Assembly: GCA_964565495.1 (NCBI GenBank)
Contig: CAZMFE010000003.1
Span: 1 to 25,962 of the forward strand
Source of the DNA: an uncultured bacterium
GTDB lineage: Bacteria > Omnitrophota > Omnitrophia > Omnitrophales > JACQLI01
DNA length: 25,962 nt
Direction: 5' to 3'
Shown here one piece after another: positions 2,045 to 17,277 of the stretch. The notes below the pieces were generated by a model. It did not search any database. It was given only the letters and a program-made list of their open reading frames with translations, and was not told the origin of the DNA. Made by a program: the position numbers and the translations under genes. Position 1 is the stretch's first letter. Each line of letters opens with the position of its first letter.

Positions 2045-2062
2045 TTGGGTAGCGGTTCCATC

Positions 2063-3967
2063 GTGGAAGGGCTCGAGCGCTTGTATGTCGGGCAGACGAT
2101 CGAGCGGGGCTCCTTGGAGACCCTCCTCCAGAAGCTCCGTTACAGGAGGAGAGACTTTGTCTCCGCGCCCGGTGAATACGCCGACCGCGGCGCGACCTTC
2201 GACATTTATCCCCTCACCTATCGCGCGCCGATCCGCTTAGGTTTCGAACTCGACACCATCGTTTCCATCCGCGATTTTTCTCCCCACGAAGGCAAAAGTC
2301 TCACGGGTTTTGAAGAAGTCTTCCTGGCCCCCCTTTCGGAACCTTTCGAGGCTCGGGTCAGCCTTGTTCGCAAGCGATTCGAGGAATTCGAACCGCTCAC
2401 CGAGGTGACGGACCTCGAAGCGGGAGACACTGTGGTTCACCTCCAATATGGGATCGCTCGTTACCTCGGGACGAAAAAGATTGAGATCCAGGGAGAGGCA
2501 AGACGTTGTATGGCCCTGGAGTTCGCGGATCGCGAAATCCTTTATCTCGAAATCACCGAGCCCCTGGAACGCTATATCGGAATCGAAGGGAAAAAGCCGA
2601 AACTGACGCGGCTTCATACCAAAGAATGGGAACGTGCAAAAACCAAGGCCCGGCTCGCCGTCGAAAATGTGGCCCGCGATCTTTTGTCTCTGGCGGCCCG
2701 AAGAGAACTTGGGTGTGGGTTTGCTTTTCCCAAAGACAGTCCCTGGCAGGGTGAGTTCGAGGAAGAGTTTCCTTTCGAAGAGACCGCGGATCAGCTCAAG
2801 GCGACGGAGGAAGTCAAACGGGACATGGAATCCCCTCGGCCAATGGATCGGCTCCTTTGCGGCGACGTGGGCTTTGGAAAGACGGAAGTGGCGATGCGCG
2901 CGGCCTTTAAAGCGGTGACGGCAGGGAAACAAGTCGCCTTTCTCGTTCCCACGACGGTTTTGGCCGAACAACACTGGCTTGTTTTCAAGGAGCGGGCGAA
3001 AAATTTCCCGCTCGCAATCGAAGTCCTCTCCCGTTTCCGTTCCAGGAAAGATCAGATTCAAGTCCTTAAAGGTCTTGAAGAGGGGAAAGTGGATGTCGTG
3101 ATCGGAACGCACCGGCTTCTTTCGGGGGATGTCCAATTTAAAGATTTGGGCCTCGTCGTGATCGATGAAGAGCAGCGTTTTGGCGTGGCCCACAAAGAGA
3201 AATTGAAAAAACTGCGGGAGGTGGTCGATCTCCTCACGTTAACCGCAACCCCCATTCCTCGAACGCTTTATCTTTCCCTCATGGGGGCGCGGGACATGTC
3301 CATGATCCATACCCCTCCCCGGACCCGCCTCCCCATCGAAACCCAAGTGATCGAATACGATGACCGAAAGATTGCCGATGCGATTCAGAGGGAGCTCGCG
3401 CGCGGGGGACAAATCTATTTCGTTCATAACCGGATCGCTTCGATTGAGCGGGTCCACGAGCATTTAAAAACGATTCTTCCGGACGTCCGATTCGGGATTG
3501 CCCATGGTCAGATGCCGTCACGGGCCCTTGAGAAGATCATGAAAGACTTTTTCGAGAAAAGAATCGATTGTTTGATTGCCACCAATATCATCGAATCGGG
3601 TCTCGATATTCCCAATGTCAACACGATCATTGTGAACCGGGCGGATCGATTTGGTCTGGCGGATCTTTACCAGCTGCGGGGACGCGTGGGCCGGTTTATC
3701 GGGAAGCGGCAGGCCTACGGCTATTTTATTGTTCCCCGGAATTGGGTCATGACGCTCGATGCCGAGAAACGCCTGGAAGCCATTGAGCGATTCACGGAAT
3801 TGGGGGCGGGATTCAAGATCGCTTTGAAGGATCTCGAAATTCGGGGCGCGGGGAATATCTTGGGTCACGAACAAAGCGGCTTCATTTATGCCGTGGGTTT
3901 TGACCTCTATTGCCGTATGCTCCGCCGCGCCATCGAAGAGATGAAAGGCAGATCGGCCAAGCGCTAA
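2063..3967 (+). CDS. mfd: Transcription-repair coupling factor, short form (~634 aa: D2-like + RID + SF2 translocase + TRG, no D7)
   Basis: PGEYADRGATFDIYP (UvrB-homology D2), GDTVVHLQYGIARYLG (CarD-like RID), GDVGFGKTEVAMRAA, DEEQRFG, TATPIPRTL, QLRGRVGR, DLEIRGAGNILGHEQSG. Start is uncertain (2045 TTG or 2063 GTG). Confidence 0.92.
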   Translation: MEGLERLYVGQTIERGSLETLLQKLRYRRRDFVSAPGEYADRGATFDIYPLTYRAPIRLGFELDTIVSIRDFSPHEGKSLTGFEEVFLAPLSEPFEARVSLVRKRFEEFEPLTEVTDLEAGDTVVHLQYGIARYLGTKKIEIQGEARRCMALEFADREILYLEITEPLERYIGIEGKKPKLTRLHTKEWERAKTKARLAVENVARDLLSLAARRELGCGFAFPKDSPWQGEFEEEFPFEETADQLKATEEVKRDMESPRPMDRLLCGDVGFGKTEVAMRAAFKAVTAGKQVAFLVPTTVLAEQHWLVFKERAKNFPLAIEVLSRFRSRKDQIQVLKGLEEGKVDVVIGTHRLLSGDVQFKDLGLVVIDEEQRFGVAHKEKLKKLREVVDLLTLTATPIPRTLYLSLMGARDMSMIHTPPRTRLPIETQVIEYDDRKIADAIQRELARGGQIYFVHNRIASIERVHEHLKTILPDVRFGIAHGQMPSRALEKIMKDFFEKRIDCLIATNIIESGLDIPNVNTIIVNRADRFGLADLYQLRGRVGRFIGKRQAYGYFIVPRNWVMTLDAEKRLEAIERFTELGAGFKIALKDLEIRGAGNILGHEQSGFIYAVGFDLYCRMLRRAIEEMKGRSAKR

Positions 3968-3985
3968 AGGGTAAAATCTCTTCTC

Positions 3986-4176
3986 GCCAAGACCCCCCTC
4001 GCCTGGGCCTCAGTCGGATTCTACGCGAGAAATCTACACGAGACGGCGTGGGAAGACCCTTCCGCCGTTCCCCCGCCCCAAAAGATTGGGCGGTGGCCGT
4101 CGGCTTTCCCACGCCGTCTCGTAAGATTTCTAATGACTCCGAATCCGATTCGGCCCTTGGCGAGGGGGTTCTTGGC
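3986..4176. repeat. ~190-bp imperfect foldback (long hairpin) element A
   Basis: Nested stems: 3986-4002/4159-4176, 4013-4020/4141-4148, 4027-4034/4124-4131, perfect 17 bp 4037-4053/4106-4122, 4072-4077/4088-4093. Confidence 0.9.
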
Positions 4177-4183
4177 TGTCAGG

Positions 4184-4356
4184 AGAAAATTTATTCCCCC
4201 GCCGCAATCAGGGCCGAAGGGGGTCCTACAACTCTTGCGATCTCGAGGTGGGGAAAACCCGGCCAGAAGTCTCCTTCTGTGGGACCGGGTGGGGCCCCGC
4301 CTCGGGATCGCTTAGAGTTGTCGCGAGAAGGCCCGCGGAGGGGGAATAAATTTTCT
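4184..4356. repeat. ~173-bp imperfect foldback (MITE-like) element B
   Basis: Terminal IR AGAAAATTTATTCCCC (4184-4199)/GGGGAATAAATTTTCT (4341-4356). Inner pairs ACAACTCT/AGAGTTGT, GCGATC/GATCGC, ACCCGG/CCGGGT. Confidence 0.88.
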
Positions 4357-4404
4357 TCTTCCAGGCGAGGGGATTCTGCCGTTGAACAGGAAAAGATTCT
4401 GCAA

Positions 4405-4433
4405 TTGAAATGAAGAAGGGCTTATGGTATAGG
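4405..4433 (+). promoter_or_regulatory. Sigma70-like promoter for surA
   Basis: TTGAAA (4405-4410), 17-bp spacer, TG-G-TATAGG (4428-4433). ATG lies only 11 nt downstream. Confidence 0.45.
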
Positions 4434-4444
4434 TAGAGCCTACC

Positions 4445-5413
4445 ATGAGGCGTTTTGCTCTCCTCATCGGAGGGTTTCTTTTTTTCGAACTCACACCGGC
4501 TTGGGCCCAAAGGCAGATCGTCGACCGTGTGGTTGCGGTCATCAATGACGAAGCCATTACCCAAAGCGAGCTCGAAGTCTACCTCCGTCCTCTCTACGAG
4601 AGTCTCAAGGAGCAGTATCAAGGGGAAGAATTAAACCGTCAACTCAATGAGGTTCGGCTCAAGCTTTTGAATCAAATGATTGAGGATCGTCTTGTCTTTC
4701 AAGAGTCAAAGGAGCTCGGCATCACGGTTGATGACAGCGAAATCGATGCGATGGTCAATGAGGTGAAAAGGAGATTTTCCTCGGAGACCGAATTCGATCA
4801 AATGTTGGCCGCTCAACGCTACAGTCTGGCCGAACTTCGTGAGGGTTTCCAGCGGCAGATTGCCATCCGAAAGCTCCACGACATGGAGGTCCGCGCCCAT
4901 GTCGTTGTCTCGCCCCGAGAAATCGAAGATTTCTATAAAAACCGAAATCCCGAACTTGCCGAGGAGGAAAAAATCAAGATTCGCTCAATCACCCTCCGAA
5001 AAACCAAGGAAGCTGAGGAGAAAGGTCTGAGCGATGAGGCGGCAAGGAAGAAGCTGGAGTCGGTTGAAGCCCGCATTCGAACCGGAGAAAGTTTTGAAGC
5101 CCTGGCGCGAGAATTTTCAGAAGACGCCCGTGCCAAAGAAGGGGGGCTGGTCGGGTGGGTCCGGCGCGGCGAGATGCTTCCTGCAATCGAAGAGCATCTT
5201 TTTAAGCTCCCGGCCGGAGCCATTTCCCCGCTTTTAGAGACGCCTCAGGGTTATCATCTGTTCAAGATTGAGGAAAAAACGGTGAGCCAAGTCCCTTCCC
5301 TTGAGGAGGTTCGGGAGAAGATTCGCGCAATGATTTTCCGGGAGAAAGCCGGGAAGCGTTTTAAGGAATGGATGAACCAACTCAAGGCGCGCGCCTACAT
5401 CTCCGTTCGTTGA
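4445..5413 (+). CDS. surA: SurA-like periplasmic chaperone / parvulin-type peptidyl-prolyl isomerase
   Basis: Signal peptide (…TPAWA), IVDRVVAVINDEAIT SurA N-domain, one rotamase domain (FEALAREFSED…GGLVGW…ETPQGYHLFK). Lies upstream of pdxA as in the conserved surA-pdxA-rsmA order. Confidence 0.85.
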   Translation: MRRFALLIGGFLFFELTPAWAQRQIVDRVVAVINDEAITQSELEVYLRPLYESLKEQYQGEELNRQLNEVRLKLLNQMIEDRLVFQESKELGITVDDSEIDAMVNEVKRRFSSETEFDQMLAAQRYSLAELREGFQRQIAIRKLHDMEVRAHVVVSPREIEDFYKNRNPELAEEEKIKIRSITLRKTKEAEEKGLSDEAARKKLESVEARIRTGESFEALAREFSEDARAKEGGLVGWVRRGEMLPAIEEHLFKLPAGAISPLLETPQGYHLFKIEEKTVSQVPSLEEVREKIRAMIFREKAGKRFKEWMNQLKARAYISVR

Positions 5414-5513
5414 CAGGATTCAGAATTCAGAAGTCAGAAGAATAGAAGGGAGGACGATTTTGATCGTTAACCTCTGATTTCTGGCTTCTGTCCTCTGACT
5501 TCTGTTTTCTGGG
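5412..5513. repeat. Inverted pair of heptamer tandem arrays
   Basis: Left: GACAGGA TTCAGAA TTCAGAA GTCAGAA … AATAGAA (5412-5447). Right: CTCTGAT TTCTGGC TTCTGTC CTCTGAC TTCTGTT TTCTGGG (5472-5513). Confidence 0.85.
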
Positions 5514-5518
5514 TGGTC

Positions 5519-6574
5519 ATGCAAAAGCCAATTGTTGCCATCACGATGGGAGACCCGGGCGGGATCGGTCCGGAAGTCATCGCACGCACGATCCAAGATC
5601 CTAAAAAGTTCAAGGATGTTTTCCTCCTTTTAATCGGTACGGGGGTCGTCTTTGAATTTCTTGAAGACCGGCTCCCCCTCAGGCTTCCTTTAAACCCGAT
5701 CCCCACCCTCACCCGAGATTTTCTGAGAGATGACTCGGTCAACTTTCTCGATGTCACCGAAGAGGCCCAGTGGCTTTTAAAAAATCACTCTTTCCCCGGA
5801 ACCTCCTCGGATGCCTTGTTTGACATTGGCCGGGTTTCCGTGACCAATTCGGCGATGTCGCTGGCCGCCTTGAAGGCCGGAGCCTATCAAGCGGCGACTG
5901 GACTGGTGGATGCATTGGTGACCGGTCCGGTCAGTAAGGAGGCGATCCGTCTGATTGAACCTAAGTTTCACGGTCACACGGAATATTTGGCTCGCGTTGC
6001 GCGGGTGAAGAGATTTGCCATGATGTTCCTCAATGAAAACGGACGAGGATCTTCCGGGCTTCGAGTGACCCTTGTCACGATTCATGTCCCCTTGAAAAAG
6101 GTGAGCCGCCTCTTAACCGAGGAAACAATCCTTGAAAAGATCCAATTGACCGATGAGTTTTTGAAGACCCGCCTCGGGATCCCAAAACCGAAGATTGCAG
6201 TCTCGGCCCTCAATCCGCACGGTCGGGAAACCGGGGAGGAAGAGGGGAAAGTGATTGAGCCTGCGATTCAGAGGGCCCGGGAGGAAAAGATCAACGTTTT
6301 GGGCCCCATCTCCGGAGACCGCGTTTTTTACGATGCCTATCACGGAACCTATGATGCCGTCGTGGCGATGTATCACGATCAGGCCCTGGCCCCTTTCAAG
6401 CTGATCGCCTTTGACACCGGTGTCAACTTGACGCTCGGTCTGCCTTACCTCCGCACCTCTCCCGACCACGGAACCGCCTTCGACATTGCCTATCAAGGCA
6501 AGGCGGACCCCCGTTCCATGGAATCCGCGCTCCGGTGCGCCCTTAGATTGCTTCGTCCCCCGCACTTTCGTTAA
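5519..6574 (+). CDS. pdxA: 4-hydroxythreonine-4-phosphate dehydrogenase
   Basis: ITMGDPGGIGPEV, GHTEYLA, LVTIHVPL, LNPH, AMYHDQ, RTSPDHGTAFDIA. ATG 5519 preferred over GTG 5513. Confidence 0.95.
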   Translation: MQKPIVAITMGDPGGIGPEVIARTIQDPKKFKDVFLLLIGTGVVFEFLEDRLPLRLPLNPIPTLTRDFLRDDSVNFLDVTEEAQWLLKNHSFPGTSSDALFDIGRVSVTNSAMSLAALKAGAYQAATGLVDALVTGPVSKEAIRLIEPKFHGHTEYLARVARVKRFAMMFLNENGRGSSGLRVTLVTIHVPLKKVSRLLTEETILEKIQLTDEFLKTRLGIPKPKIAVSALNPHGRETGEEEGKVIEPAIQRAREEKINVLGPISGDRVFYDAYHGTYDAVVAMYHDQALAPFKLIAFDTGVNLTLGLPYLRTSPDHGTAFDIAYQGKADPRSMESALRCALRLLRPPHFR

Positions 6575-6597
6575 AAGTGCTGGGTCTTCGCAATGAC
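6545..6597. repeat. Half of a GTCATTGCG-family palindromic element overlapping the convergent pdxA/GT2 stops
   Basis: AGATTGCTTCGTC (6545-6557), hairpin GCACTTT/AAAGTGC, then TCGCAATGAC (6588-6597), the reverse complement of GTCATTGCGA seen at 10638 and 14520. Confidence 0.7.
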
Positions 6598-8250
6598 GGC
6601 GCTTGTTTTACGCTTTCCCTTCGGCGCCACGAAGAATTCCATGTATTTTCCAAGGGCGAGGCGGGTCTGGGCATCAAAGGCGGGAATCGCCCCGAAGATC
6701 GTGGCGATGACGGGAACCAGAAGCCATTGAAAGGCAAAGACGACCTTCTGATAGAGAGGAACTTTTTTCGGACGTTTGGGGAGGAGGAAAAAACTCAGGA
6801 CGATCGAGATGAAAAGACTCGCGATCGCAAGATTGGCAATCACCCCCGCGACGCGCGGGGCATTAAAGTAGGCCACTGAACCTGCGAAGTCGCGATTCGG
6901 CACCCACAGGGGGGCCCAGCTTAGAATCAGCATCATCGGGGTCCAAATCGCCCACGCCACATTCATCTCGAGGAGACGAAAGGTCCGTTTGACTTTGAGC
7001 CAAAGAGGAATTTTCGAATTGGCCAGAAGTCCTCGAACAAGAATCGGAAAATTTTCGACTCCCCAGGCCCACCTTCTTTTTTGGCGGTAGATCGATTGAC
7101 AGGTTTTCCAGAGGTTCTCTCCAATGGCCACATCCATGGAAACAGTGACATAAAGAGGTTCGACCCGATAGTCGCCGTCATAGACGAGGAAGGCCTTCCA
7201 GAAAATCGCTGAGTCATCGGAAACAAGGTCGAGGGGCCAGAAACCCACTTCCACGAGCGCTTGAAAGCTCATGCTGTGACTGGAGAAGGTGACGAGGTGT
7301 TCGGGATCGGTGACTTCAATCAACTGCAGAAAGGAAGAACCCGTTTCGAGGACCCGGGCAAAAGGCGGGGCCTCCCAGAGATTGTTGTGATAGACCGGAA
7401 TCGGCTGGAAACTCGTTCGGGTCCGTCTGGGATGAATGAGGTAATTGTAAGTGAGGCAGGAGAAGTACTCCGGACTCACGACCGTGTCGGAGTCAAAACA
7501 GGAGACCAGGAGATGATCCAAAGGAACGCGTCTCGCCTCAAAGAACTTTTTCGCCCAACGCGCCGCATGAGTCGAATTGGCCCCCTTCACAGGGGCTTCT
7601 CCCGCTCCTCCCTCGGGATGGACGCACACCTCAAAGTGAAGAAAGAATTTTGCGTATCGCTCCCTTAAAATCTCAGCCTGCCCGAGCGCCTCTTTTCCGG
7701 CCCGTTCTTCAACTCCCAGAACGACGACCATTCGATCTCGCGGGTAATTTACACGGGCCAAGGCCTCAAGACTGGGTCCCAAGACCGAAAGTCCTTCCTG
7801 ATAAAAGGGGATGATGACGAGGTGACAAATCTCTTTGGGATCTGGAAAATGGAGAGACTTCTGCCTCACCCGTTCCAGGGTTGCGAGGTGCCTGCGCTCT
7901 GAATAAAGCGCTTTCCAATTCGTTCGGAGTTCACGGAGGCGCCTGCGGCTTCTTGCGATGGCACTTTCCAGATTCCCAAGATCTTCAAGCCGGTTTCGCC
8001 ACTTGACCGACCGCTCCACCTCGAGGAGGCCATAAGAGAGGACGAGGAAAATCGTGAAGTAAATCAGTCGCAAAAGCCAATAGAGGTCAAAGAGGATAAT
8101 GGTTACGACCCCCGCCGCAGGGGCAAACACACAAAGAAGGGTGAGGGAGAGGAGAAGGCTCCAACTTAAGCTCGCGGGGACGATTTCGAGAAAGCGTTCA
8201 AGCCGCCAGGCCTTCGGATCCAGATGCTGGCGAGAATAAGAGAAGGTCAT
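6571..8250 (-). CDS. Membrane-bound family-2 glycosyltransferase (processive synthase-like)
   Basis: N-terminal TM helices, GT-A motifs KGANS, FDSD (DxD), SDD, QKRRW (QxxRW), C-terminal TM helices. ATGA overlap with the upstream PEGA gene. Confidence 0.85.
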   Translation of the reverse strand: MTFSYSRQHLDPKAWRLERFLEIVPASLSWSLLLSLTLLCVFAPAAGVVTIILFDLYWLLRLIYFTIFLVLSYGLLEVERSVKWRNRLEDLGNLESAIARSRRRLRELRTNWKALYSERRHLATLERVRQKSLHFPDPKEICHLVIIPFYQEGLSVLGPSLEALARVNYPRDRMVVVLGVEERAGKEALGQAEILRERYAKFFLHFEVCVHPEGGAGEAPVKGANSTHAARWAKKFFEARRVPLDHLLVSCFDSDTVVSPEYFSCLTYNYLIHPRRTRTSFQPIPVYHNNLWEAPPFARVLETGSSFLQLIEVTDPEHLVTFSSHSMSFQALVEVGFWPLDLVSDDSAIFWKAFLVYDGDYRVEPLYVTVSMDVAIGENLWKTCQSIYRQKRRWAWGVENFPILVRGLLANSKIPLWLKVKRTFRLLEMNVAWAIWTPMMLILSWAPLWVPNRDFAGSVAYFNAPRVAGVIANLAIASLFISIVLSFFLLPKRPKKVPLYQKVVFAFQWLLVPVIATIFGAIPAFDAQTRLALGKYMEFFVAPKGKRKTSAVIAKTQHF

Positions 8251-9677
8251 GGGAAAAGGCCCTCTCCTTCGAAGAGTTTAAACCGGGCGAGCCGGTTCCG
8301 ATCGGGATGGACGAAGTAGAGAAACCCTCGTTTTCGGTCAAGGAGGATCTGAGGGAACTCGCCTGAAATTTCAAAAAGCTCAATGGCCTCTCCCTCCCCT
8401 TCGAAATCAAGGACCTTCACGCGGCTGCCCTCCAGGAATAGAACATATCGGTCGCTGTAAAACCAGAGGAGGTTTCCCAGGGCCTCCTTTCCCTGGTAGA
8501 TTCTGCGGGGAGTCAGGCCCCTTTCGAAGAAAGTCCTTTCGCGTTCCCGTTCAAAATCCACTATCCAGAGCTCGGTCCCTTTCCGGTAAAGAACTCTCGG
8601 ATGAGAATTGGCCAGGGCCAGTTCATGGACTCCCTCGTCGAGAAAATAAGGGAGTTTATTGGAGAAGAGCTTTCCTTGATGGGAAAGGAAAAGGGCGAGG
8701 GCATCCTCTAAAGAAGAGAAGAGGGAGACGGGGGGGAGAAAGGAAATGGAGTATCGCTCTCCTTCATCCGGCCCAAAAATCAAACGAGCCTTCTCGGGTT
8801 CCTTCAAGAGGGTATTTCGAATTTTTCCCTGGGGGGTCACCTCTAAAAAACGCCGTCGTGCATCTAAGACAAAGAGGCGCGATCCATAGAGTGCGAAACT
8901 CCGGATCCTTTTCGGGAGATCGAGATAAAGGACTCCTTCATCCAGATCGAGATACCTCAAGGTCTCTCCTTTGAGATAGAAAAGGGAACTTTTGTGAGGG
9001 GCTCCCCATTGGAGTTGAGTGAAAGGTTCTTGCAAAAGATCCGTTAAGGAATTGACTTGGATCGGGTCGGAAAATCTGACCAACAAGGGGCGAAGACCCT
9101 CGCTCCTTCGAAGAGAAACAATCGCCCGATCGCCCCAAGGGTGAAGAAGAACTTTTTCTACGACCGCCTCTCGAGTGGGGCCGATGGGAAAGATCGGCCG
9201 GAATTCCTTTTTGTCAGGTTCGAAGAGGGTGAGTCCAGAAGCTTTTTCTCCTTCGAGCACAACGAGGCGTTTGCCTCCGGGATCGGACCAAATTTTCGTC
9301 ACCGAAAAGTTTCCCAAAATCTCAAGACGAGGCGAAAGGGGGAAAAGAAGAATATCCTCAAGACGAAGTGCCCGATCCGGTTTCGTCTCAATCCTTTTCT
9401 GCCACGGGTGATATCCCGGGAGGCCGATCCGAAGATCATAGAATCCAGGCCGCAGGTTACGTAGGACAAGGGGAGTCTTGTCGTTGGCAAGAACCCCATT
9501 GACCCAAACTCGAGCCTGGGAAGGTTCCGTCTCTACACTGACAAGGCCGGTCGGCAGCAGGGTTTGCTGGATCGGGCTGAAAATATACCCTAAAGCATAG
9601 AGAATCGTGAGAGGGGCGGCCACAAGGTAGATCCCTACAAATACGAACAAAATGATCCTCCGAAGTTTACCCACCAT
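8247..9677 (-). CDS. Membrane-anchored PEGA-domain protein with a beta-rich (possibly propeller) C-terminal region
   Basis: N-terminal TM helix, then VETEPSQARVWVNG…TPLVLRNLRPGFYDLRIGLPGYHPW (PEGA-like). SD GAAAGGTGA upstream on the minus strand. Confidence 0.75.
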   Translation of the reverse strand: MVGKLRRIILFVFVGIYLVAAPLTILYALGYIFSPIQQTLLPTGLVSVETEPSQARVWVNGVLANDKTPLVLRNLRPGFYDLRIGLPGYHPWQKRIETKPDRALRLEDILLFPLSPRLEILGNFSVTKIWSDPGGKRLVVLEGEKASGLTLFEPDKKEFRPIFPIGPTREAVVEKVLLHPWGDRAIVSLRRSEGLRPLLVRFSDPIQVNSLTDLLQEPFTQLQWGAPHKSSLFYLKGETLRYLDLDEGVLYLDLPKRIRSFALYGSRLFVLDARRRFLEVTPQGKIRNTLLKEPEKARLIFGPDEGERYSISFLPPVSLFSSLEDALALFLSHQGKLFSNKLPYFLDEGVHELALANSHPRVLYRKGTELWIVDFERERERTFFERGLTPRRIYQGKEALGNLLWFYSDRYVLFLEGSRVKVLDFEGEGEAIELFEISGEFPQILLDRKRGFLYFVHPDRNRLARFKLFEGEGLFP

Positions 9678-9729: not shown

Positions 9730-9758
9730 TTGACAAGTCAAGCTCGTTCAGCTAAAGT
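9730..9758 (+). promoter_or_regulatory. Sigma70-like promoter for rsmA
   Basis: TTGACA (9730-9735), 17-bp spacer, TAAAGT (9753-9758). Confidence 0.55.
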
Positions 9759-9783
9759 CCAAGACAAGACACTACCCGTCGCA

Positions 9784-10686
9784 ATGTCCTCGACTCAAAT
9801 TGCCCTTCTTAAAAAGTATGGTCTTTCCATTCGTGGGATAAGGGGCCAGCATCTTCTCATCGACCCAAATATTCAGCGAAAAATTGTTGAGCTTCTTGAC
9901 CCAAAGCCCAAGGAGTGGGTTCTTGAAATAGGCCCGGGTCTTGGGGCGCTCACTCAAGAAATTTTGGTAGCGGGGGCATCGGTCATTGCTGTGGAGAAGG
10001 ACAAGCGGTTTTGTGAGATCTTGGAGGGGGAATTGGGACCAGATTACAAAAATAGGCTTTGGGTTGGAAATGCGGATGTCTTGAAAATCGACTTGGAGAA
10101 ATTGCTGAAGCGTGTTCTTGGGTCGTCATTGCGGGCGCTCCGCCACTGCAAAGTTATTTCAAATCTCCCTTACTACATCACCTCGCCTGTTCTTTTCTGG
10201 TTAATTGAGAATCGTAGCTACGTCGAAAAAGCGGTCTTGATGATGCAGCGCGAAGTGGCCAAGCGAATTCTCGCTCAGCCGGGAAACAAGGACTATGGGC
10301 GGCTCACCCTTGCCATTCGCTATTATGCCGAGGTCCACCGCGCCTTTGACGTGTCACGAAATTGTTTCAGCCCGAGGCCGGATGTCGACTCAAGTGTGAT
10401 CACCCTCGACTTTCACTCCCCCTCCAAACTCCCTCGAGGGATCAATCAAGATTTCCTTTTTCATTTGATTCAGGTTGCCTTCGGGGCACGGAGAAAAACT
10501 TTGCTTGCTCGATTAACAAGTGATTCCCAGATTGGAAAATCACGAGGCGAACTGGTTGAAATTTTACGAAAGGTTGGGATCCGCGAAAAAGCCCGGGGAG
10601 AAGACCTCCTCCTTAAAGATTTTATGGCAATCGCCATGTCATTGCGAGGAGCGGAGCGAAGCAATGACGTTCTGCCCATTTATTGA
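9784..10686 (+). CDS. rsmA: 16S rRNA m6,2A1518/1519 dimethyltransferase (KsgA)
   Basis: GQHLLID, VLEIGPGLGALT, SNLPYYI, MMQREVAKR, FSPRPDVDS, FGARRKTL. ATG 9784 lies downstream of the promoter, whereas the ORF-track start 9730 is the -35 box. Confidence 0.95.
   Translation: MSSTQIALLKKYGLSIRGIRGQHLLIDPNIQRKIVELLDPKPKEWVLEIGPGLGALTQEILVAGASVIAVEKDKRFCEILEGELGPDYKNRLWVGNADVLKIDLEKLLKRVLGSSLRALRHCKVISNLPYYITSPVLFWLIENRSYVEKAVLMMQREVAKRILAQPGNKDYGRLTLAIRYYAEVHRAFDVSRNCFSPRPDVDSSVITLDFHSPSKLPRGINQDFLFHLIQVAFGARRKTLLARLTSDSQIGKSRGELVEILRKVGIREKARGEDLLLKDFMAIAMSLRGAERSNDVLPIY
10638..10668. repeat. GTCATTGCG-family palindrome within the rsmA 3' end
   Basis: GTCATTGCGAGGAGCGGAGCGAAGCAATGAC. Its first 20 bp are the exact reverse complement of 14539-14558. 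Confidence 0.85.
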
Positions 10687-12442: not shown

Positions 12443-13866
12443 TGGAACCAGTAATTGGACTAGAGGTTCACGTCCAGCTGAAGACGCGGTCGAAGCTTTT
12501 TTGTCCCTGTCCGAATGAGTTTGGGGCGGAGCCGAATAAGAATACGTGTCCGGTTTGTCTGGGACTGCCGGGTTCCCTGCCGGTTTTGAATCGCGAGGCC
12601 CTTCGGCTGGCGATTCGAGTGGGACTCGCCCTTCATTGTGAAGTGGCCGGTCGGCTCAAATTCGACCGAAAAAATTATTTTTACCCCGATCTCCCCAAGG
12701 CCTACCAGATCTCTCAATACGATAGGCCTGTCAATTCCAAGGGCTTCCTCATGGTGGAGACTCGAAACGGCTTAAAGAAGATCGAAATCACCCGCGCCCA
12801 TCTGGAAGAGGACGCAGGCAAACTCCTTCACGAGGGGGTGCGGGAAGGGAGTCTGATCGATTACAACCGAGCGGGGGTGCCCCTGATGGAGGTCGTTTCT
12901 GAACCCGATCTCCGATCTTCGGAGGATGCCTACGAATATTTGACGACCCTAAAAGCGATTCTTCAGTACCTTGACGTGAGTGATTGCGACATGGAAAAAG
13001 GAAGCCTCCGTTGTGACGCCAATATTTCCGTCAGGCCCAAAGGCGAAGCCCGTCTTGGGACAAAAGTCGAGATCAAAAATATGAATTCATTTCGGGCAGT
13101 CCAAAAGGCTCTCGAGTTTGAAATCAAACGTCAGACCGAGGTTCTCCAAGAAGGAGGAAAATTGACCCAGGAGACGCGTCTGTGGAACGAATCAAAGGAC
13201 GGAACCTTCTCCATGCGGTCCAAAGAATATGCCCACGATTACCGCTACTTCCCAGAGCCCGACCTCGTTCCCTTTACGATTGCGCGGGAGGAGGTCGAGG
13301 GGATTCGGAAGACTTTGCCCGAGCTTCCGCTGGATCGGGCGAAGCGGCTCATGAAGGATTATGGAATTCCGGAGGCGGATGCCTTTCGTCTCGTGCAGGA
13401 CAAAAAATTGGCGGCGTATTACGAAACCTGTGTGGCCGAGAAGGTGAGTCCGAGACTGGCGGCGAACTGGATTCAAAGCGAACTCTTAGGACTTCTGAAT
13501 GAGAAGGGATTAACGATTGAAAAATCCCCTGTTTCAGCCCCAGGGCTTGCTGCGCTGATCCGACTCATTGAAAATAACACCCTGAGTGGGAAAATCGCCA
13601 AGGAGGTTCTCCCCGAGATGCTCGTCGCGGGAAAATCGGCGGAAGCGATTGTGAAGGAGAAAGGACTGGTTCAAATCACCGATACCGAAGTGATCGTGAG
13701 GACCGTCGAACAGGTCATTCAATCAAACGCAGTGGTGGTGAAAGATTTCAAAAATGGAAAGAAAGAAGCCCTCGGTTTTCTTATCGGCCAAGTGATGAAG
13801 GAAACTCAAGGAAAAGCCAGCCCCAAGATCGTAAATGAAATTTTGGAGAAAAAGTTGAAAGGCTAA
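12442..13866 (+). CDS. gatB: Asp/Glu-tRNA amidotransferase subunit B
   Basis: IGLEVHVQL, RKNYFYPDLPKAYQISQ, HLEEDAGK, LRCDANIS, YRYFPEPDL, Yqey-like tail. ATG 12442 overlaps the gatA stop (TGATG). Confidence 0.97.
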   Translation: MEPVIGLEVHVQLKTRSKLFCPCPNEFGAEPNKNTCPVCLGLPGSLPVLNREALRLAIRVGLALHCEVAGRLKFDRKNYFYPDLPKAYQISQYDRPVNSKGFLMVETRNGLKKIEITRAHLEEDAGKLLHEGVREGSLIDYNRAGVPLMEVVSEPDLRSSEDAYEYLTTLKAILQYLDVSDCDMEKGSLRCDANISVRPKGEARLGTKVEIKNMNSFRAVQKALEFEIKRQTEVLQEGGKLTQETRLWNESKDGTFSMRSKEYAHDYRYFPEPDLVPFTIAREEVEGIRKTLPELPLDRAKRLMKDYGIPEADAFRLVQDKKLAAYYETCVAEKVSPRLAANWIQSELLGLLNEKGLTIEKSPVSAPGLAALIRLIENNTLSGKIAKEVLPEMLVAGKSAEAIVKEKGLVQITDTEVIVRTVEQVIQSNAVVVKDFKNGKKEALGFLIGQVMKETQGKASPKIVNEILEKKLKG

Positions 13867-14876
13867 TGTTAACTCTTGGAATCGAAACCTCCTGTGACGA
13901 GACTTCTTGCGCTGTTTTAGAAAACGGCAATCGGATCCTTTCCAACGTCGTCTCTTCAAGCCTTGCAAAGCACAAGCCCTTCGGGGGTGTGGTTCCCGAA
14001 ATTGCTTCCCGGCATTGTCTGGAACAGATCGATTTTGTTTTCAAAACAGCGCTTCGTAAAACCAAGGTCGCCGAGAAAGATTTAGGCCTGATTGCGGTCA
14101 CCCAGGGACCCGGTCTGGTGGGTTCCCTCCTCGTCGGATTATCCTTTGCGAAGGCCCTGGCTTATCAACTCGGAATTCCTTTTGTCGGTGTGAATCACCT
14201 CGAGGGCCACTTGGCAGCTAACTTTATCGGTCGACCCCTCCCTCGGCATCCGTATATTGGACTCATCGTTTCTGGAGGGCACACGGAACTGACGGTTCAT
14301 CGCAACGGTTCCGTAAAAATTCTAGGGTCAACCGTCGACGACGCGGTGGGAGAGGCGTATGATAAGAGCGCGAAACTTTTAGGGCTGGGATATCCGGGGG
14401 GCCCCTTGATCGACCGGCTCGCTCAGAAGGGGAACCCCCAGGCGTTCCGTTTTACGAAACCGAGACAGGAAGGCCGGTTTGATTTTAGTTTCAGCGGGAT
14501 TAAGACTGCGGTACGAAACGTCATTGCGAGCCCCGTCTGCTCCGCTCCTCGCAATGACAGAATCTTAAATGATCTTTGTGCCAGTTTTCAGGAGACGGTG
14601 GTTGGCTGGCTCGTTGAGAAAACAATCGACGCCTGCCGGACCCAAAAGGTGAAAGAGGTTGTGGTTGGGGGAGGGGTGAGCGCGAATTCGAGGCTTCGCC
14701 GCCTCCTTGGCGAGGAAGCAAGACCCTACGGAATCCGGGTTTGGTTTCCTCCTCTGGCTCTGACGGTTGATAATGCCGCCATGATTGCCCGCCGGGGTTG
14801 GGAACTTTATAGAAATGGTAAACGTTCGGATTGGAAGATTTCAGCCTTACCGAATATGAGAATAGGAGAATCGTGA
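13866..14876 (+). CDS. tsaD: tRNA N6-threonylcarbamoyladenosine transferase
   Basis: LGIETSCDET, GGVVPEIASR, NHLEGH, VSGGHT, DDAVGEAYDK, DFSFSGIKTA, GGVSAN, DNAAMIA. Confidence 0.97.
   Translation: MLTLGIETSCDETSCAVLENGNRILSNVVSSSLAKHKPFGGVVPEIASRHCLEQIDFVFKTALRKTKVAEKDLGLIAVTQGPGLVGSLLVGLSFAKALAYQLGIPFVGVNHLEGHLAANFIGRPLPRHPYIGLIVSGGHTELTVHRNGSVKILGSTVDDAVGEAYDKSAKLLGLGYPGGPLIDRLAQKGNPQAFRFTKPRQEGRFDFSFSGIKTAVRNVIASPVCSAPRNDRILNDLCASFQETVVGWLVEKTIDACRTQKVKEVVVGGGVSANSRLRRLLGEEARPYGIRVWFPPLALTVDNAAMIARRGWELYRNGKRSDWKISALPNMRIGES
14520..14558. repeat. 39-bp GTCATTGCG-family palindrome in frame inside tsaD
   Basis: Perfect 11-bp IR GTCATTGCGAG/CTCGCAATGAC, encoding VIASPVCSAPRND. Confidence 0.85.
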
Positions 14877-16085: not shown

Positions 16086-16534
16086 GCCCCGCCCCGTACC
16101 ACCGCGAAAAGCTGCTTCTCCTCGAGACCAATATCGACGATATGACCCCTCAAGGTTTCGAATTGGTTTACGAGAGGCTTTTTAAAGCGGGCGCTTTAGA
16201 TGTTTGGGTCCAGTCCATTCTCATGAAAAAAATGCGGCCCGCGTTTAAACTCTGTGTCTTGTTCAACCCGCCCCGCAAAGAGAAGTTGATGAAAGTCGTC
16301 TTCAAAGAGACGCCCACGCTTGGCGTCAGGTGTTTTGAAGTCGACCGTTTCTCCCTCCCTCGGAAACAGTTCCGTGTCAAAACCCGTTTTGGGCCCGTTC
16401 GAGTCAAGGTGGGATCTCTTGATTCCGAGCATCGAGTCGTGAATCCGGAATACGAAGACATCAAGCGGATTGCCCAAAGAAAAAACCTCCCCTTCCACAC
16501 GGCCCTACGCGAAGTTAAAAAAGACGTTTCGTGA
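16082..16534 (+). CDS. larC: LarC C-terminal domain only (LarC2-like)
   Basis: LETNIDDM, GALDVW, MKKMRP, ETPTLGVR, VKTRFGPVRVK, PEYEDIKRIA. 150 aa from ATG 16082, no N-terminal or His-rich half. Confidence 0.88.
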   Translation: MSPAPYHREKLLLLETNIDDMTPQGFELVYERLFKAGALDVWVQSILMKKMRPAFKLCVLFNPPRKEKLMKVVFKETPTLGVRCFEVDRFSLPRKQFRVKTRFGPVRVKVGSLDSEHRVVNPEYEDIKRIAQRKNLPFHTALREVKKDVS

Positions 16535-17277
16535 CCCTGCCTCTGGCTCAAAATATCGTGGCGCTAACGAGCGCTGTCCTCGGTGGATTTTTCGCCATCA
16601 CCGTCGGAGTCTCCCACAAAAGGCTTTGTGCGTTAATCAGTTTTGCAGCAGGAACCCTCCTTGGAACCACGTTTCTCCACATTGTTCCTGAAGCACTGGA
16701 AGTCATCTCTTTTCTTGGGGTAGGCCTAGCGCTCTTGTCCGGTTATCTGGTTTTTTTCCTGATCAGCCGATTCATCTTCCACGTTTGCCCGGCCTGCGCG
16801 GCGACTCACTTTGACGAACAGACCGCCTCTCGTTTCAAGAATATCGCCCGCCTCCTTGTCGTTGCTCTCGGGATCCACTGCATGATGGATGGAATCGCCT
16901 TGGCCCTCGGGGGCGAATTAGAGGGAAAAGTGGATCGATCGATTTTTCTGGCGATCTCCGTCCATAAGTTCCCGGAAGGATTAGCGCTGGCAGCCCTTTT
17001 GGTGAGGGCCGGTTTTGAGAAAATGAAGGCATTGGGGATGACGACGGGAATAGAAGCCCTCACCTTTTTGGGATGGATTTTGGGTCTTTTTTCAATCAAA
17101 GGTTTCGCCCCCGACGGGTGGTTTTATCTCGTCCTGGTCCATATCGGAGGGGGGTTTCTCTACCTAGCCCTCCACGCGTTACTGAACGAAAGCGAGGAAC
17201 ACTCCCCTCGTTATGTCATCCTCTTCTTTCTAATCGGCTTCGTGGCGATCGGACTGACAAACTTGATTCCCGCCTAA
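16531..17277 (+). CDS. ZIP-family divalent metal transporter
   Basis: Multiple TM helices, FAAGTLLG…[24 protein letters not shown] metal-site motifs. Confidence 0.88.

Follow-up and report, generated by a model that had tools for sequence, protein, structure and literature searches.

A perfect palindrome that is translated within an essential gene raises the question of where it came from and why the protein carries it. Such a case is found on contig CAZMFE010000003.1 (GenBank assembly GCA_964565495.1) of an uncultured bacterium of the Omnitrophota, whose 25,962 nt, the whole contig, were analysed here and are called the window; all coordinates given without a locus name are positions in it. 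The open reading frame (ORF) at 13866–14876 on the forward strand is intact, comprises 336 amino acids and encodes TsaD, the tRNA N6-adenosine threonylcarbamoyltransferase, as judged from Pfam PF00814 (1.6e-88) and from a comparison with the solved Thermotoga maritima TsaD structures 6NAK/6N9A (3.5e-88). At 14520–14558 it contains the 39-bp palindrome GTCATTGCGAG-17 nt-CTCGCAATGAC, with arms of 11 nt each that are 100% complementary, and the complete palindrome is read in frame as 13 codons, V219–D231 (VIASPVCSAPRND), which confirms what a preliminary description of this DNA had reported. From its relatives in other genomes, its presence or absence in orthologous genes and its position in the protein, the element is likely a selfish hairpin repeat of the CGTC-tagged superfamily of repetitive extragenic palindromes (REPs), mobilised in trans, kept where the protein tolerates it and carried along as a translated passenger.

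A palindrome translated in tsaD

Including its tags, the element reads C-GTC ATTGCGAG, 17 nt, CTCGCAAT GAC-A and extends from 14519 to 14559 on the forward strand, with CGTC at 14519–14522 and GACA, which is TGTC on the opposite strand, at 14556–14559. The left arm (GTCATTGCGAG, 14520–14530, forward strand) is read as GTC ATT GCG AG, giving V, I, A and the beginning of S, and the right arm (CTCGCAATGAC, 14548–14558, forward strand) as (C)CT CGC AAT GAC, giving PRND. Between them, the interior CCCCGTCTGCTCCGCTC (14531–14547, forward strand) appears in an alignment of seven copies as the remnant of a right-hand repeat unit, without the inner CGAAGCAATC...GATTGCTTCG core that the long forms possess. 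Of the three frames of the palindrome, one is closed by TGA and the other two are open (VIA...PRND and SLR...LAMT); because of these two open frames, an insertion of 3n bases into a tolerant loop would often be viable. Folded as single-stranded RNA, the element is predicted to form one hairpin of −18 kcal/mol (z = −5.0 compared to shuffles), and an Rfam scan of the window at gathering thresholds led to one tRNA only, with no match at the element. The tryptic peptide expected from this segment is NVIASPVCSAPR. In the preliminary description the element was placed between FSGIKTAVRN and DLCASFQ in a variable surface region. Its location in a variable helix-loop stands, while the four residues RILN still lie between the element and DLCASFQ.

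Recurrence of the arms in the window and in other genomes

Taken by itself, the inverted repeat is not beyond chance, because a perfect 11-nt inverted repeat with a loop of 3–40 nt was present in 29% of 300 first-order Markov copies of the window. The element is nevertheless more than a chance symmetry, because its 11-mer recurs, its arms are in excess and the pair of arms is found in many other genomes. The 11-mer is repeated at 10638 in a second copy, whose first 20 bases equal those of the reverse-complemented tsaD copy, and the 26-kb window contains three exact arms compared to 0.012 expected. The arrangement GTCATTGCGAG-N5-35-CTCGCAATGAC was detected in at least 120 stretches of a one-genome-per-species collection, for which our own arithmetic (596 Gb × 31 spacings / 4^22) gives a chance expectation of about 1. 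These results also bear on the explanation that nothing was inserted and that the symmetry arose by chance, by quasi-palindrome correction through template switching or as an assembly artefact at a repeat. The frequency among simulated windows would agree with it, as would the fact that no target-site duplication is seen, but the arms are those of the at least 120 copies elsewhere and of the other window copy, with its 20 shared nt. In addition, the source run is a hot-spring metagenome of which an independent Logan assembly reproduces positions 14468–14800 with zero differences. The gene also has an uninterrupted reading frame, and relatives have homologous copies at the same site. An origin without insertion is therefore extremely improbable and, as far as these data go, seems refuted by the family matches.

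The arm pairs (at least 120 loci) span about 17 phyla among the matches listed, namely Alpha-, Beta- and Gammaproteobacteria, Desulfobacterota and Thermodesulfobacteriota, Bdellovibrionota, Bacteroidota, Chloroflexota, Firmicutes, Spirochaetota, Planctomycetota, Fibrobacterota, Omnitrophota, Caldatribacteriota, Cyanobacteria, Melainabacteria, Patescibacteria, Gemmatimonadota and Nitrospirota. In these copies the arms are constant and the interior of 5–35 nt, which are the limits of the search, is often palindromic itself, with flanks that sometimes lengthen the palindrome. Nearly all of the matches listed are extragenic, frequently only a few bases past a stop codon. A crude open-frame test had classified 25 of 121 copies as intragenic, and Pfam analysis of ten of them left two real cases, the rest being mostly spurious frames or upstream regions in GC-rich genomes. 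Copies verified inside a protein domain thus number 2 of 121 (a Fibrobacter aminotransferase and a Collierbacteria family 2 (GT2) glycosyltransferase), and two of the four copies in the window lie at gene 3' ends, so that the designation as a family of intragenic repeats, proposed in the preliminary description, was not upheld. The right-hand unit of one Omnitrophota tsaD element (locus L205, 1185–1217, GATTGCTTCGTCGCTTCGCTCCTCGCAATGAC...) is identical over 33 nt (100%) to positions 100183–100215 of the Methylosinus trichosporium OB3b plasmid NZ_CP023738.1, and this identity shows how little the repeat differs between phyla. A phage or plasmid vector is not indicated, because viral contigs (one match) and plasmids (four matches) are not enriched.

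Loci of close relatives contain 10 ATTGCGAG-type and 10 ATCCTGAG-type arms in 92 kb, and ATTGCGAG-type arms were absent from 720 kb of tsaD loci of other phyla. The element with the stem ATTGCGAG might be one pan-bacterial mobile hairpin whose arms are the recognition site of a single widespread single-strand DNA nuclease or transposase, which would be the reason that the arms are identical from Bradyrhizobium to Omnitrophota, the candidate phyla radiation (CPR) and Cyanobacteria. We regard such a common system as rather unlikely.

Assignment to the CGTC-tagged REP superfamily

The definition of the CGTC-tagged REP superfamily comes from a survey by Di Nocera, De Gregorio and Rocco (2013, BMC Genomics 14:522; PMC3733652) that covered five phyla and mostly Alphaproteobacteria. 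As described there, one end of the palindrome bears an unpaired tag (CGTC, or also TGTC or CCTC), the stem of 8–9 bp starts with two A-T pairs, variable loops are noted for some families, and the repeats often form head-to-head dimers. They are dispersed in many copies per genome and are mostly extragenic, lie near or overlap the 3' ends of ORFs, especially of convergent genes, and are occasionally found in frame inside housekeeping genes; a dedicated transposase is not assigned to them. Neisseria dRS3 and two of the Rickettsia palindromic elements (RPEs), RPE-6 (CGTC-1, VIPAKAGI) and RPE-4 (CGTC-4, VIPWLDHGI), are named as members (PMC3733652).

The element in tsaD has an unpaired CGTC at 14519–14522 with TGTC on the other strand, and its stem ATTGCGAG/CTCGCAAT consists of 8 perfect base pairs of which the first are A-T. 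In front of GTC, 64% of the 121 copies of other genomes have C and 28% have T (92% together), mirrored by G or A after GAC. The shortest copies elsewhere have 5-nt loops (GTC-ATTGCGAG-CGAAG-CTCGCAAT-GAC; L032 and L098), and the units within long copies terminate with GCAAT followed by CCA, CTC or CTA. Long copies in relatives (78–99 nt) show the order YGTCATTGCGAGG...CGAAGCAATC-spacer-GATTGCTTCG...CTCCTCGCAATGACR, reflecting a unit, a spacer and an inverted unit. The tsaD copy aligns with them as a dimer with a deleted centre, having a second tag where the CCA tail of the superfamily would be expected, and the copy at 10638 as a single unit. By its sequence, the tsaD element is a member of the CGTC-tagged REP superfamily, because tag, AT-initial 8-bp stem and dimer architecture match the published description (PMC3733652). 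The preliminary description had seen a merely analogous system restricted to another lineage, which does not agree with the tag and stem of the published superfamily nor with identical arms in about 17 phyla.

Published family peptides are VIPAKAGI for CGTC-1, VILD.../RHSELVSGS for CGTC-2, VIAGLDPAI for CGTC-3 and VIPWLDHGI for CGTC-4 (PMC3733652). Neither VIA[SR].../...PRND nor SLR.../...LAMT is among these listed peptides, and VIAS and PRND do not occur in the supplements of that survey. Therefore the ATTGCGAG stem probably represents a further family, set apart from CGTC-1 to CGTC-4 by the peptides listed, and compared to the survey its occurrence extends to about 17 phyla including Omnitrophota and CPR, among the matches listed. 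Full-text searches of the literature for the arm sequences and the typical translated peptides led to unrelated primer matches only, and a search for Omnitrophota together with palindromic repeats gave nothing relevant.

The likeness to RPEs (Ogata et al., 2000, as cited in PMC3733652) that had been suggested before was borne out, as in both cases a palindromic repeat lies in frame within a functional gene, in surface-exposed segments for the RPEs and here as 13 codons of an intact gene at a helix end and loop with lowered model confidence. The stem is unlike those of RPE-4 (VIPWLDHGI) and RPE-6 (VIPAKAGI), the host belongs to the Omnitrophota, and RPE-1 measures 100–150 bp compared to 39 bp of the tsaD copy. 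Furthermore, one family is spread over many genes in Rickettsia, whereas here one loop of one gene contains several families across a clade. One exact-arm copy was detected in the Rickettsiaceae symbiont Tisiphia (L002). With GTAG-tagged REPs and REPINs the element shares the short, extragenic palindromes, often in inverted pairs, and the presumed mobilisation as single-stranded hairpins; it differs from the systems with REP-associated tyrosine transposases (RAYTs) in the CGTC tag and in that no RAYT-like gene was found near the copies in 1.8 Mb of loci. Bacterial MITEs (miniature transposable elements with inverted repeats), such as the QMITEs of Coxiella burnetii (PMC5896051; reviewed in PMC10969869), are similarly non-autonomous, can lie in or at the ends of ORFs and can alter protein termini. 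They are, however, 70–300 bp long with terminal inverted repeats of 15–30 bp, target-site duplications and a parent insertion sequence, none of which is seen here. Identification as a MITE was rejected from the length of 39 bp, the 11-bp arms, the flanks AAC/AGA that are not a direct repeat, and the absence of a transposase in the window or beside other copies.

The TsaD loop in related Omnitrophota

The 46 closest TsaD proteins, all from Omnitrophota and 66–87% identical, are near-invariant except for the segment from FSGIKTAV to DLCASFQ, which varies between 11 and 72 residues. Empty alleles, which the preliminary description had suggested looking for, exist: they have loops of 11–17 residues, and filled ones reach 72. 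The gene most similar to the tsaD of the window (L203; 81% identical nucleotides and 88% identical amino acids outside the loop) has the empty allele LYLVRENKFSDPRLA. In L202 the element is 24 nt long, GTCATTGCCA-TCCG-TGGCAATGAC, and keeps a perfect 10-bp stem by a paired change (GCCA/TGGC). Elements of 99 nt and 87 nt lie at the same place in L204 and L206, respectively, and one of 78 nt in L205 lies nine codons further on, following RNLVEDSTIS. The element follows AVRN or AVRD in the window, L202 and L204, and AIT in L206. L201 has retained the left half including VIA, with a decayed right arm. Even orthologues with 83–87% identity differ, with only a PRND remnant in P0002 (RNLVSGHPPRNDNFLT), RNVIAAPPKTGKDEWIT in P0004 and an empty loop in P0005.

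The same loop also contains repeats of other families. L207 (7929–7998) has a head-to-head dimer of a GTAG-tagged REP, GTAGGGGCGCCCCTTGTGGGCGCCC...GGGCGGGCACGAGGCCCGCCCCTAC, and the VGAxLxxA...AGxxPAPT peptides of such GTAG dimers in the TsaD loop match peptides in the supplement of PMC3733652. L208 (2315–2410) has the palindrome CCCCTCACCC...GGGTGAGGGG coding for PLTPALS...GERVRVRG, L209 (1118–1222) a CGTC element with the stem ATCCTGAG coding for ...ILRFAQDD, and P0064 an insert of CGTC-1 type, as judged by its peptide (VIPAEAGIQ). A crude neighbour-joining tree of the sequence outside the loop intermingles filled and empty alleles, and among the orthologues compared the distribution of the element is patchy. 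A metagenome scan with TsaD recovered one locus only with more than 70% identity. In the hot-spring run from which the contig originates, several other contigs match the conserved stretch coding for FDFSFSGIKTAV (with depth rising to 30–37) and diverge exactly at 14512/14513, the start of the variable loop; therefore, co-occurring relatives carry other loop alleles.

Between the element-bearing tsaD genes, third-codon identity is 38–48%, near saturation, compared to arms that are identical in 21–22 of 22 positions (window, L204, L205 and L206). Over their left 40 nt, the copies of L204 and L206 share about 90% of the bases. As judged from this comparison, the tsaD copies are not old neutral relics, because the arms are this well conserved at such third-codon identity. 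The arm identity could stem from insertion that was recent or happened repeatedly, from gene conversion by other copies or from selection on the hairpin. The last of these would be expected if the hairpin were kept for a role as nucleic acid, either in the mRNA, by slowing translation or determining how stable the transcript is within the gatCAB-tsaD-mgtC operon, or as a DNA site of a host protein, with the peptide as a by-product. Besides the arm identity, the compensatory pair change in L202 and the strong predicted hairpin (−18 kcal/mol) agree with this role, and REPs in general are thought to work as RNA elements (PMC3733652). In the closest relatives, however, the loop is empty, the arms have decayed (L201) or unrelated families are present, so that no specific structure is required in tsaD; interior and total length of the element vary between 24 and 99 nt among relatives, and re-insertion or gene conversion explains the identity of the arms equally well. 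We therefore consider a nucleic-acid role improbable compared to a tolerated passenger.

Position of the element in the protein

Modelling of the protein with AlphaFold2 from the alignment of 46 sequences (mean predicted local distance difference test, pLDDT, of 87) places V219–A221, encoded by the left arm, in the last turn of helix 210–221 and S222–N230 in a loop, followed by D231 as first residue of helix 231–260. Nowhere in the C-terminal half is the pLDDT lower than in the ten-residue block at this position (70), and T. maritima TsaD has a six-residue gap at the element site.

This position bears on the possibility that the 13 residues were recruited from the repeat as an adaptive addition to TsaD, for example as a new surface for TsaB, TsaE or tRNA. 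The last turn of helix 210–221 being encoded by the left arm and about nine native codons being missing would indicate structural integration, and VIA is kept in L201 despite its decayed right arm. The peptide is not conserved, however, even among the orthologues with 83–87% identity (P0002, P0004 and P0005), the inserts in this loop are chemically unrelated and range from 0 to 60 residues across the clade, and the confidence of the model is lowest at the element site. An adaptive role is thus very improbable. Remodelling of the protein with a functional consequence, as proposed in the preliminary description, gave way to tolerated passengers, with which the decayed versions, empty loops and unrelated families of the closest relatives agree; orthologues sharing the peptide without the symmetry of the DNA, which the preliminary description had named as refuting its reading, were not observed, as the peptide is not shared.

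Further copies in the window and the RsmA loop

The window contains two intact and two decayed copies, two of them at gene 3' ends. Besides the tsaD copy, the single unit GTCATTGCGAGGAGCGGAGCGAAGCAATGAC (31 nt) lies at 10638–10668 on the reverse strand, with its CGTC tag on this strand at 10666–10669. The rsmA ORF has its C-terminal tail from this copy (MSLRGAERSND..., ...FMAIAMSLRGAERSNDVLPIY*). This rsmA/ksgA ORF extends from 9730 to 10686 on the forward strand (Pfam PF00398, 1e-48), and from the start of its orthologues the gene probably begins with the ATG at 9784. At the position of the tail copy, L204 has a decayed copy and L206 none. Within rsmA, a decayed copy (CGTCATTGCGGGCGCTCCGCCACTGCAAAG, approximately 10124–10153, forward strand), read as SSLRALRHCK, lies in a variable loop directly before the SNLPYY motif. 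The fourth copy, at 6546–6598 on the reverse strand, has the order GATTGCTTCG...terminator-like hairpin...CTTCGCAATGACG and provides the last 8–10 codons and the stops of two genes, pdxA (5513–6574, forward strand), which ends with ...LRLLRPPHFR*, and a GT2 gene (6571–8250, reverse strand), which ends with ...VIAKTQHF*. Such a location between convergent ORFs is typical of CGTC repeats (PMC3733652). Copies in rsmA, pdxA and the GT2 gene, all within coding sequences and read in different frames, had been described before; this is literally correct, although genuinely internal positions are taken only by the copy in tsaD and the decayed one within rsmA.

The RsmA loop before SNLPYY (10039–10176 in the window, 6024–6161 in L204 and 4737–4874 in L206) represents a second hot spot. 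It contains the decayed CGTC copy in the window, two GC-rich GGGGCCAGGCCCC hairpins and a GCAATGACG arm (CGTC right arm) in L204, and an element CCCTCACCCC/CCCTCTCCC-GGGAGAGGG of the CCCTCACCCC family in L206. In Rickettsia conorii the dimethyladenosine transferase gene RC1022 (RsmA/KsgA) is also reported to bear a repeat (PMC3733652).

CGTC-type elements were also observed elsewhere in the relatives, at 8397–8483, 9963–9989 and 12441–12502 of L204, 8495–8578 of L121 and 367–454 of L205. Among them is a nested case at the junction of gatA and gatB, a ATCCTGAG palindrome within a ATTGCGAG-type element; the GatB called there has 524 amino acids, whereas that of the window has 483. Further ones are located in the spacer between gatB and tsaD and within the larC gene as called. 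Where such repeats lengthen called genes at the N-terminus, the extension is probably an artefact of annotation.

Origin and maintenance of the element

The element may be explained as a short non-autonomous hairpin repeat with the stem ATTGCGAG, a head-to-head dimer that would have lost its centre. Such repeats would multiply through an enzyme acting in trans, with most copies landing just past genes, and an intragenic copy would survive only if its length, here 39 nt or 13 codons, does not shift the frame, if this frame is free of stops and if the site is tolerant. In TsaD the only tolerant site would be the end of helix 210–221 together with the loop before helix 231–260, and different repeat families would pile up there in different Omnitrophota. 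The 13 residues would then be a translated passenger, with the left arm now coding for the last helical turn and native codons gone around the element. Several families with different tags, and presumably with different mobilisers, occupy the same TsaD and RsmA loops, which argues for tolerance of the protein and not for target specificity. Both the mobilisation in trans and the neutrality for TsaD function are what we infer from this pattern.

Several observations weigh against this explanation. Copy counts for this organism come from 26 kb only, as the window is the whole contig. The tsaD copy departs from the loop and tail definition of the superfamily, having a 17-nt interior compared to a loop of 4–5 nt and no CCA tail. 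The loop of the window is only 4–6 residues longer than empty alleles, so that the insertion was not a clean addition and about nine native codons were lost or replaced. Conservation of the arms far above neutral expectation could mean selection on the hairpin and not a pure passenger, and no target-site duplication is visible at the tsaD element. Finally, no transposase or nuclease was found linked to any copy and no transposase in the window, and mobility is thus deduced only from the distribution of the repeat. This agrees with the preliminary description in that no mobilising enzyme could be identified. Its suggestion of GIY-YIG or RAYT genes flanked by the repeat led nowhere, as no GIY-YIG or RAYT-like gene lies beside the motif in 1.8 Mb of loci (phmmer search for RAYTs with an Escherichia coli RAYT query). 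When all ORFs within 400 bp of the 121 copies were clustered, no recurrent neighbour gene was detected. Two papers citing the CGTC survey, on HUH endonuclease phylogenomics (PMC6006769) and on RepRanger (PMC12306157), do not identify a CGTC mobiliser either.

Small GIY-YIG genes flanking such repeats were considered as candidates and rejected, as the motif does not flank the GIY-YIG genes of L204, L207 and L123 and no such gene is located beside the cross-phylum copies. The genes themselves show a separate pattern. L204 has two identical tandem GIY-YIG genes of 104 amino acids (16300–17077), each starting within a copy of the 5'-half of tRNA-Gln(TTG), with the complete tRNA at 17005–17077. A related gene is located directly upstream of tRNA-Gln(TTG) in L123 (approximately 5030–5380), and another upstream of surA in L207 (803–1153). 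The arrangement resembles a small GIY-YIG cassette that accompanies or targets the tRNA-Gln(TTG) gene in Omnitrophota.

Other features of the window

A composite palindrome at 3986–4176, just downstream of an mfd-like gene (2045–3967), has outer arms of 36 nt with 81% complementarity and a nested perfect 17-nt inverted repeat (4038–4054/4106–4122) with a 51-nt spacer. It lies within the ORF 3910–4413, for which there is no Pfam match, is unrelated in sequence to the CGTC element and could be a MITE-like element or a structured RNA. The surA-pdxA spacer is filled by a 21-nt inverted repeat (5421–5511; CAGAATTCAGAAGTCAGAAGA/TCCTCTGACTTCTGTTTTCTG) with 86% complementarity and a 49-nt spacer. Ribosomal protein L17 (57–641) has 194 amino acids, of which the Pfam domain covers residues 20–115 only; its C-terminal extension of about 70 residues is common to the Omnitrophota relatives (160–214 amino acids). 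All named relatives of this L17 belong to Candidatus Omnitrophica/Omnitrophota, in agreement with the origin of the contig.

Implications

The type of event described here is already known from RPEs, whereas the phylum Omnitrophota and the host gene tsaD are new, and the family within the CGTC superfamily is probably new. In-frame insertion of palindromic repeats is thereby extended from Rickettsia to Omnitrophota and to TsaD, an essential enzyme of N6-threonylcarbamoyladenosine (t6A) synthesis. One permissive loop collects at least four unrelated repeat families across the clade, which illustrates how selection would filter the places where selfish DNA persists in proteins. For the interpretation of proteins from metagenome-assembled genomes this means that peptides such as VIAR...PRND, SLR...LAMT, VGAxL...PAPT and GERxRVRG are translations of repeats and not domains, and that gene calls have their N- and C-terminal extensions inflated by such repeats. 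That the arms are identical in many phyla sharpens the question raised with the 2013 survey, namely what mobilises CGTC-tagged repeats. If the ATTGCGAG-stem element were indeed one pan-bacterial hairpin, the helix-loop of TsaD and the loop of RsmA, being hit repeatedly, would provide a natural assay for the missing CGTC mobiliser.

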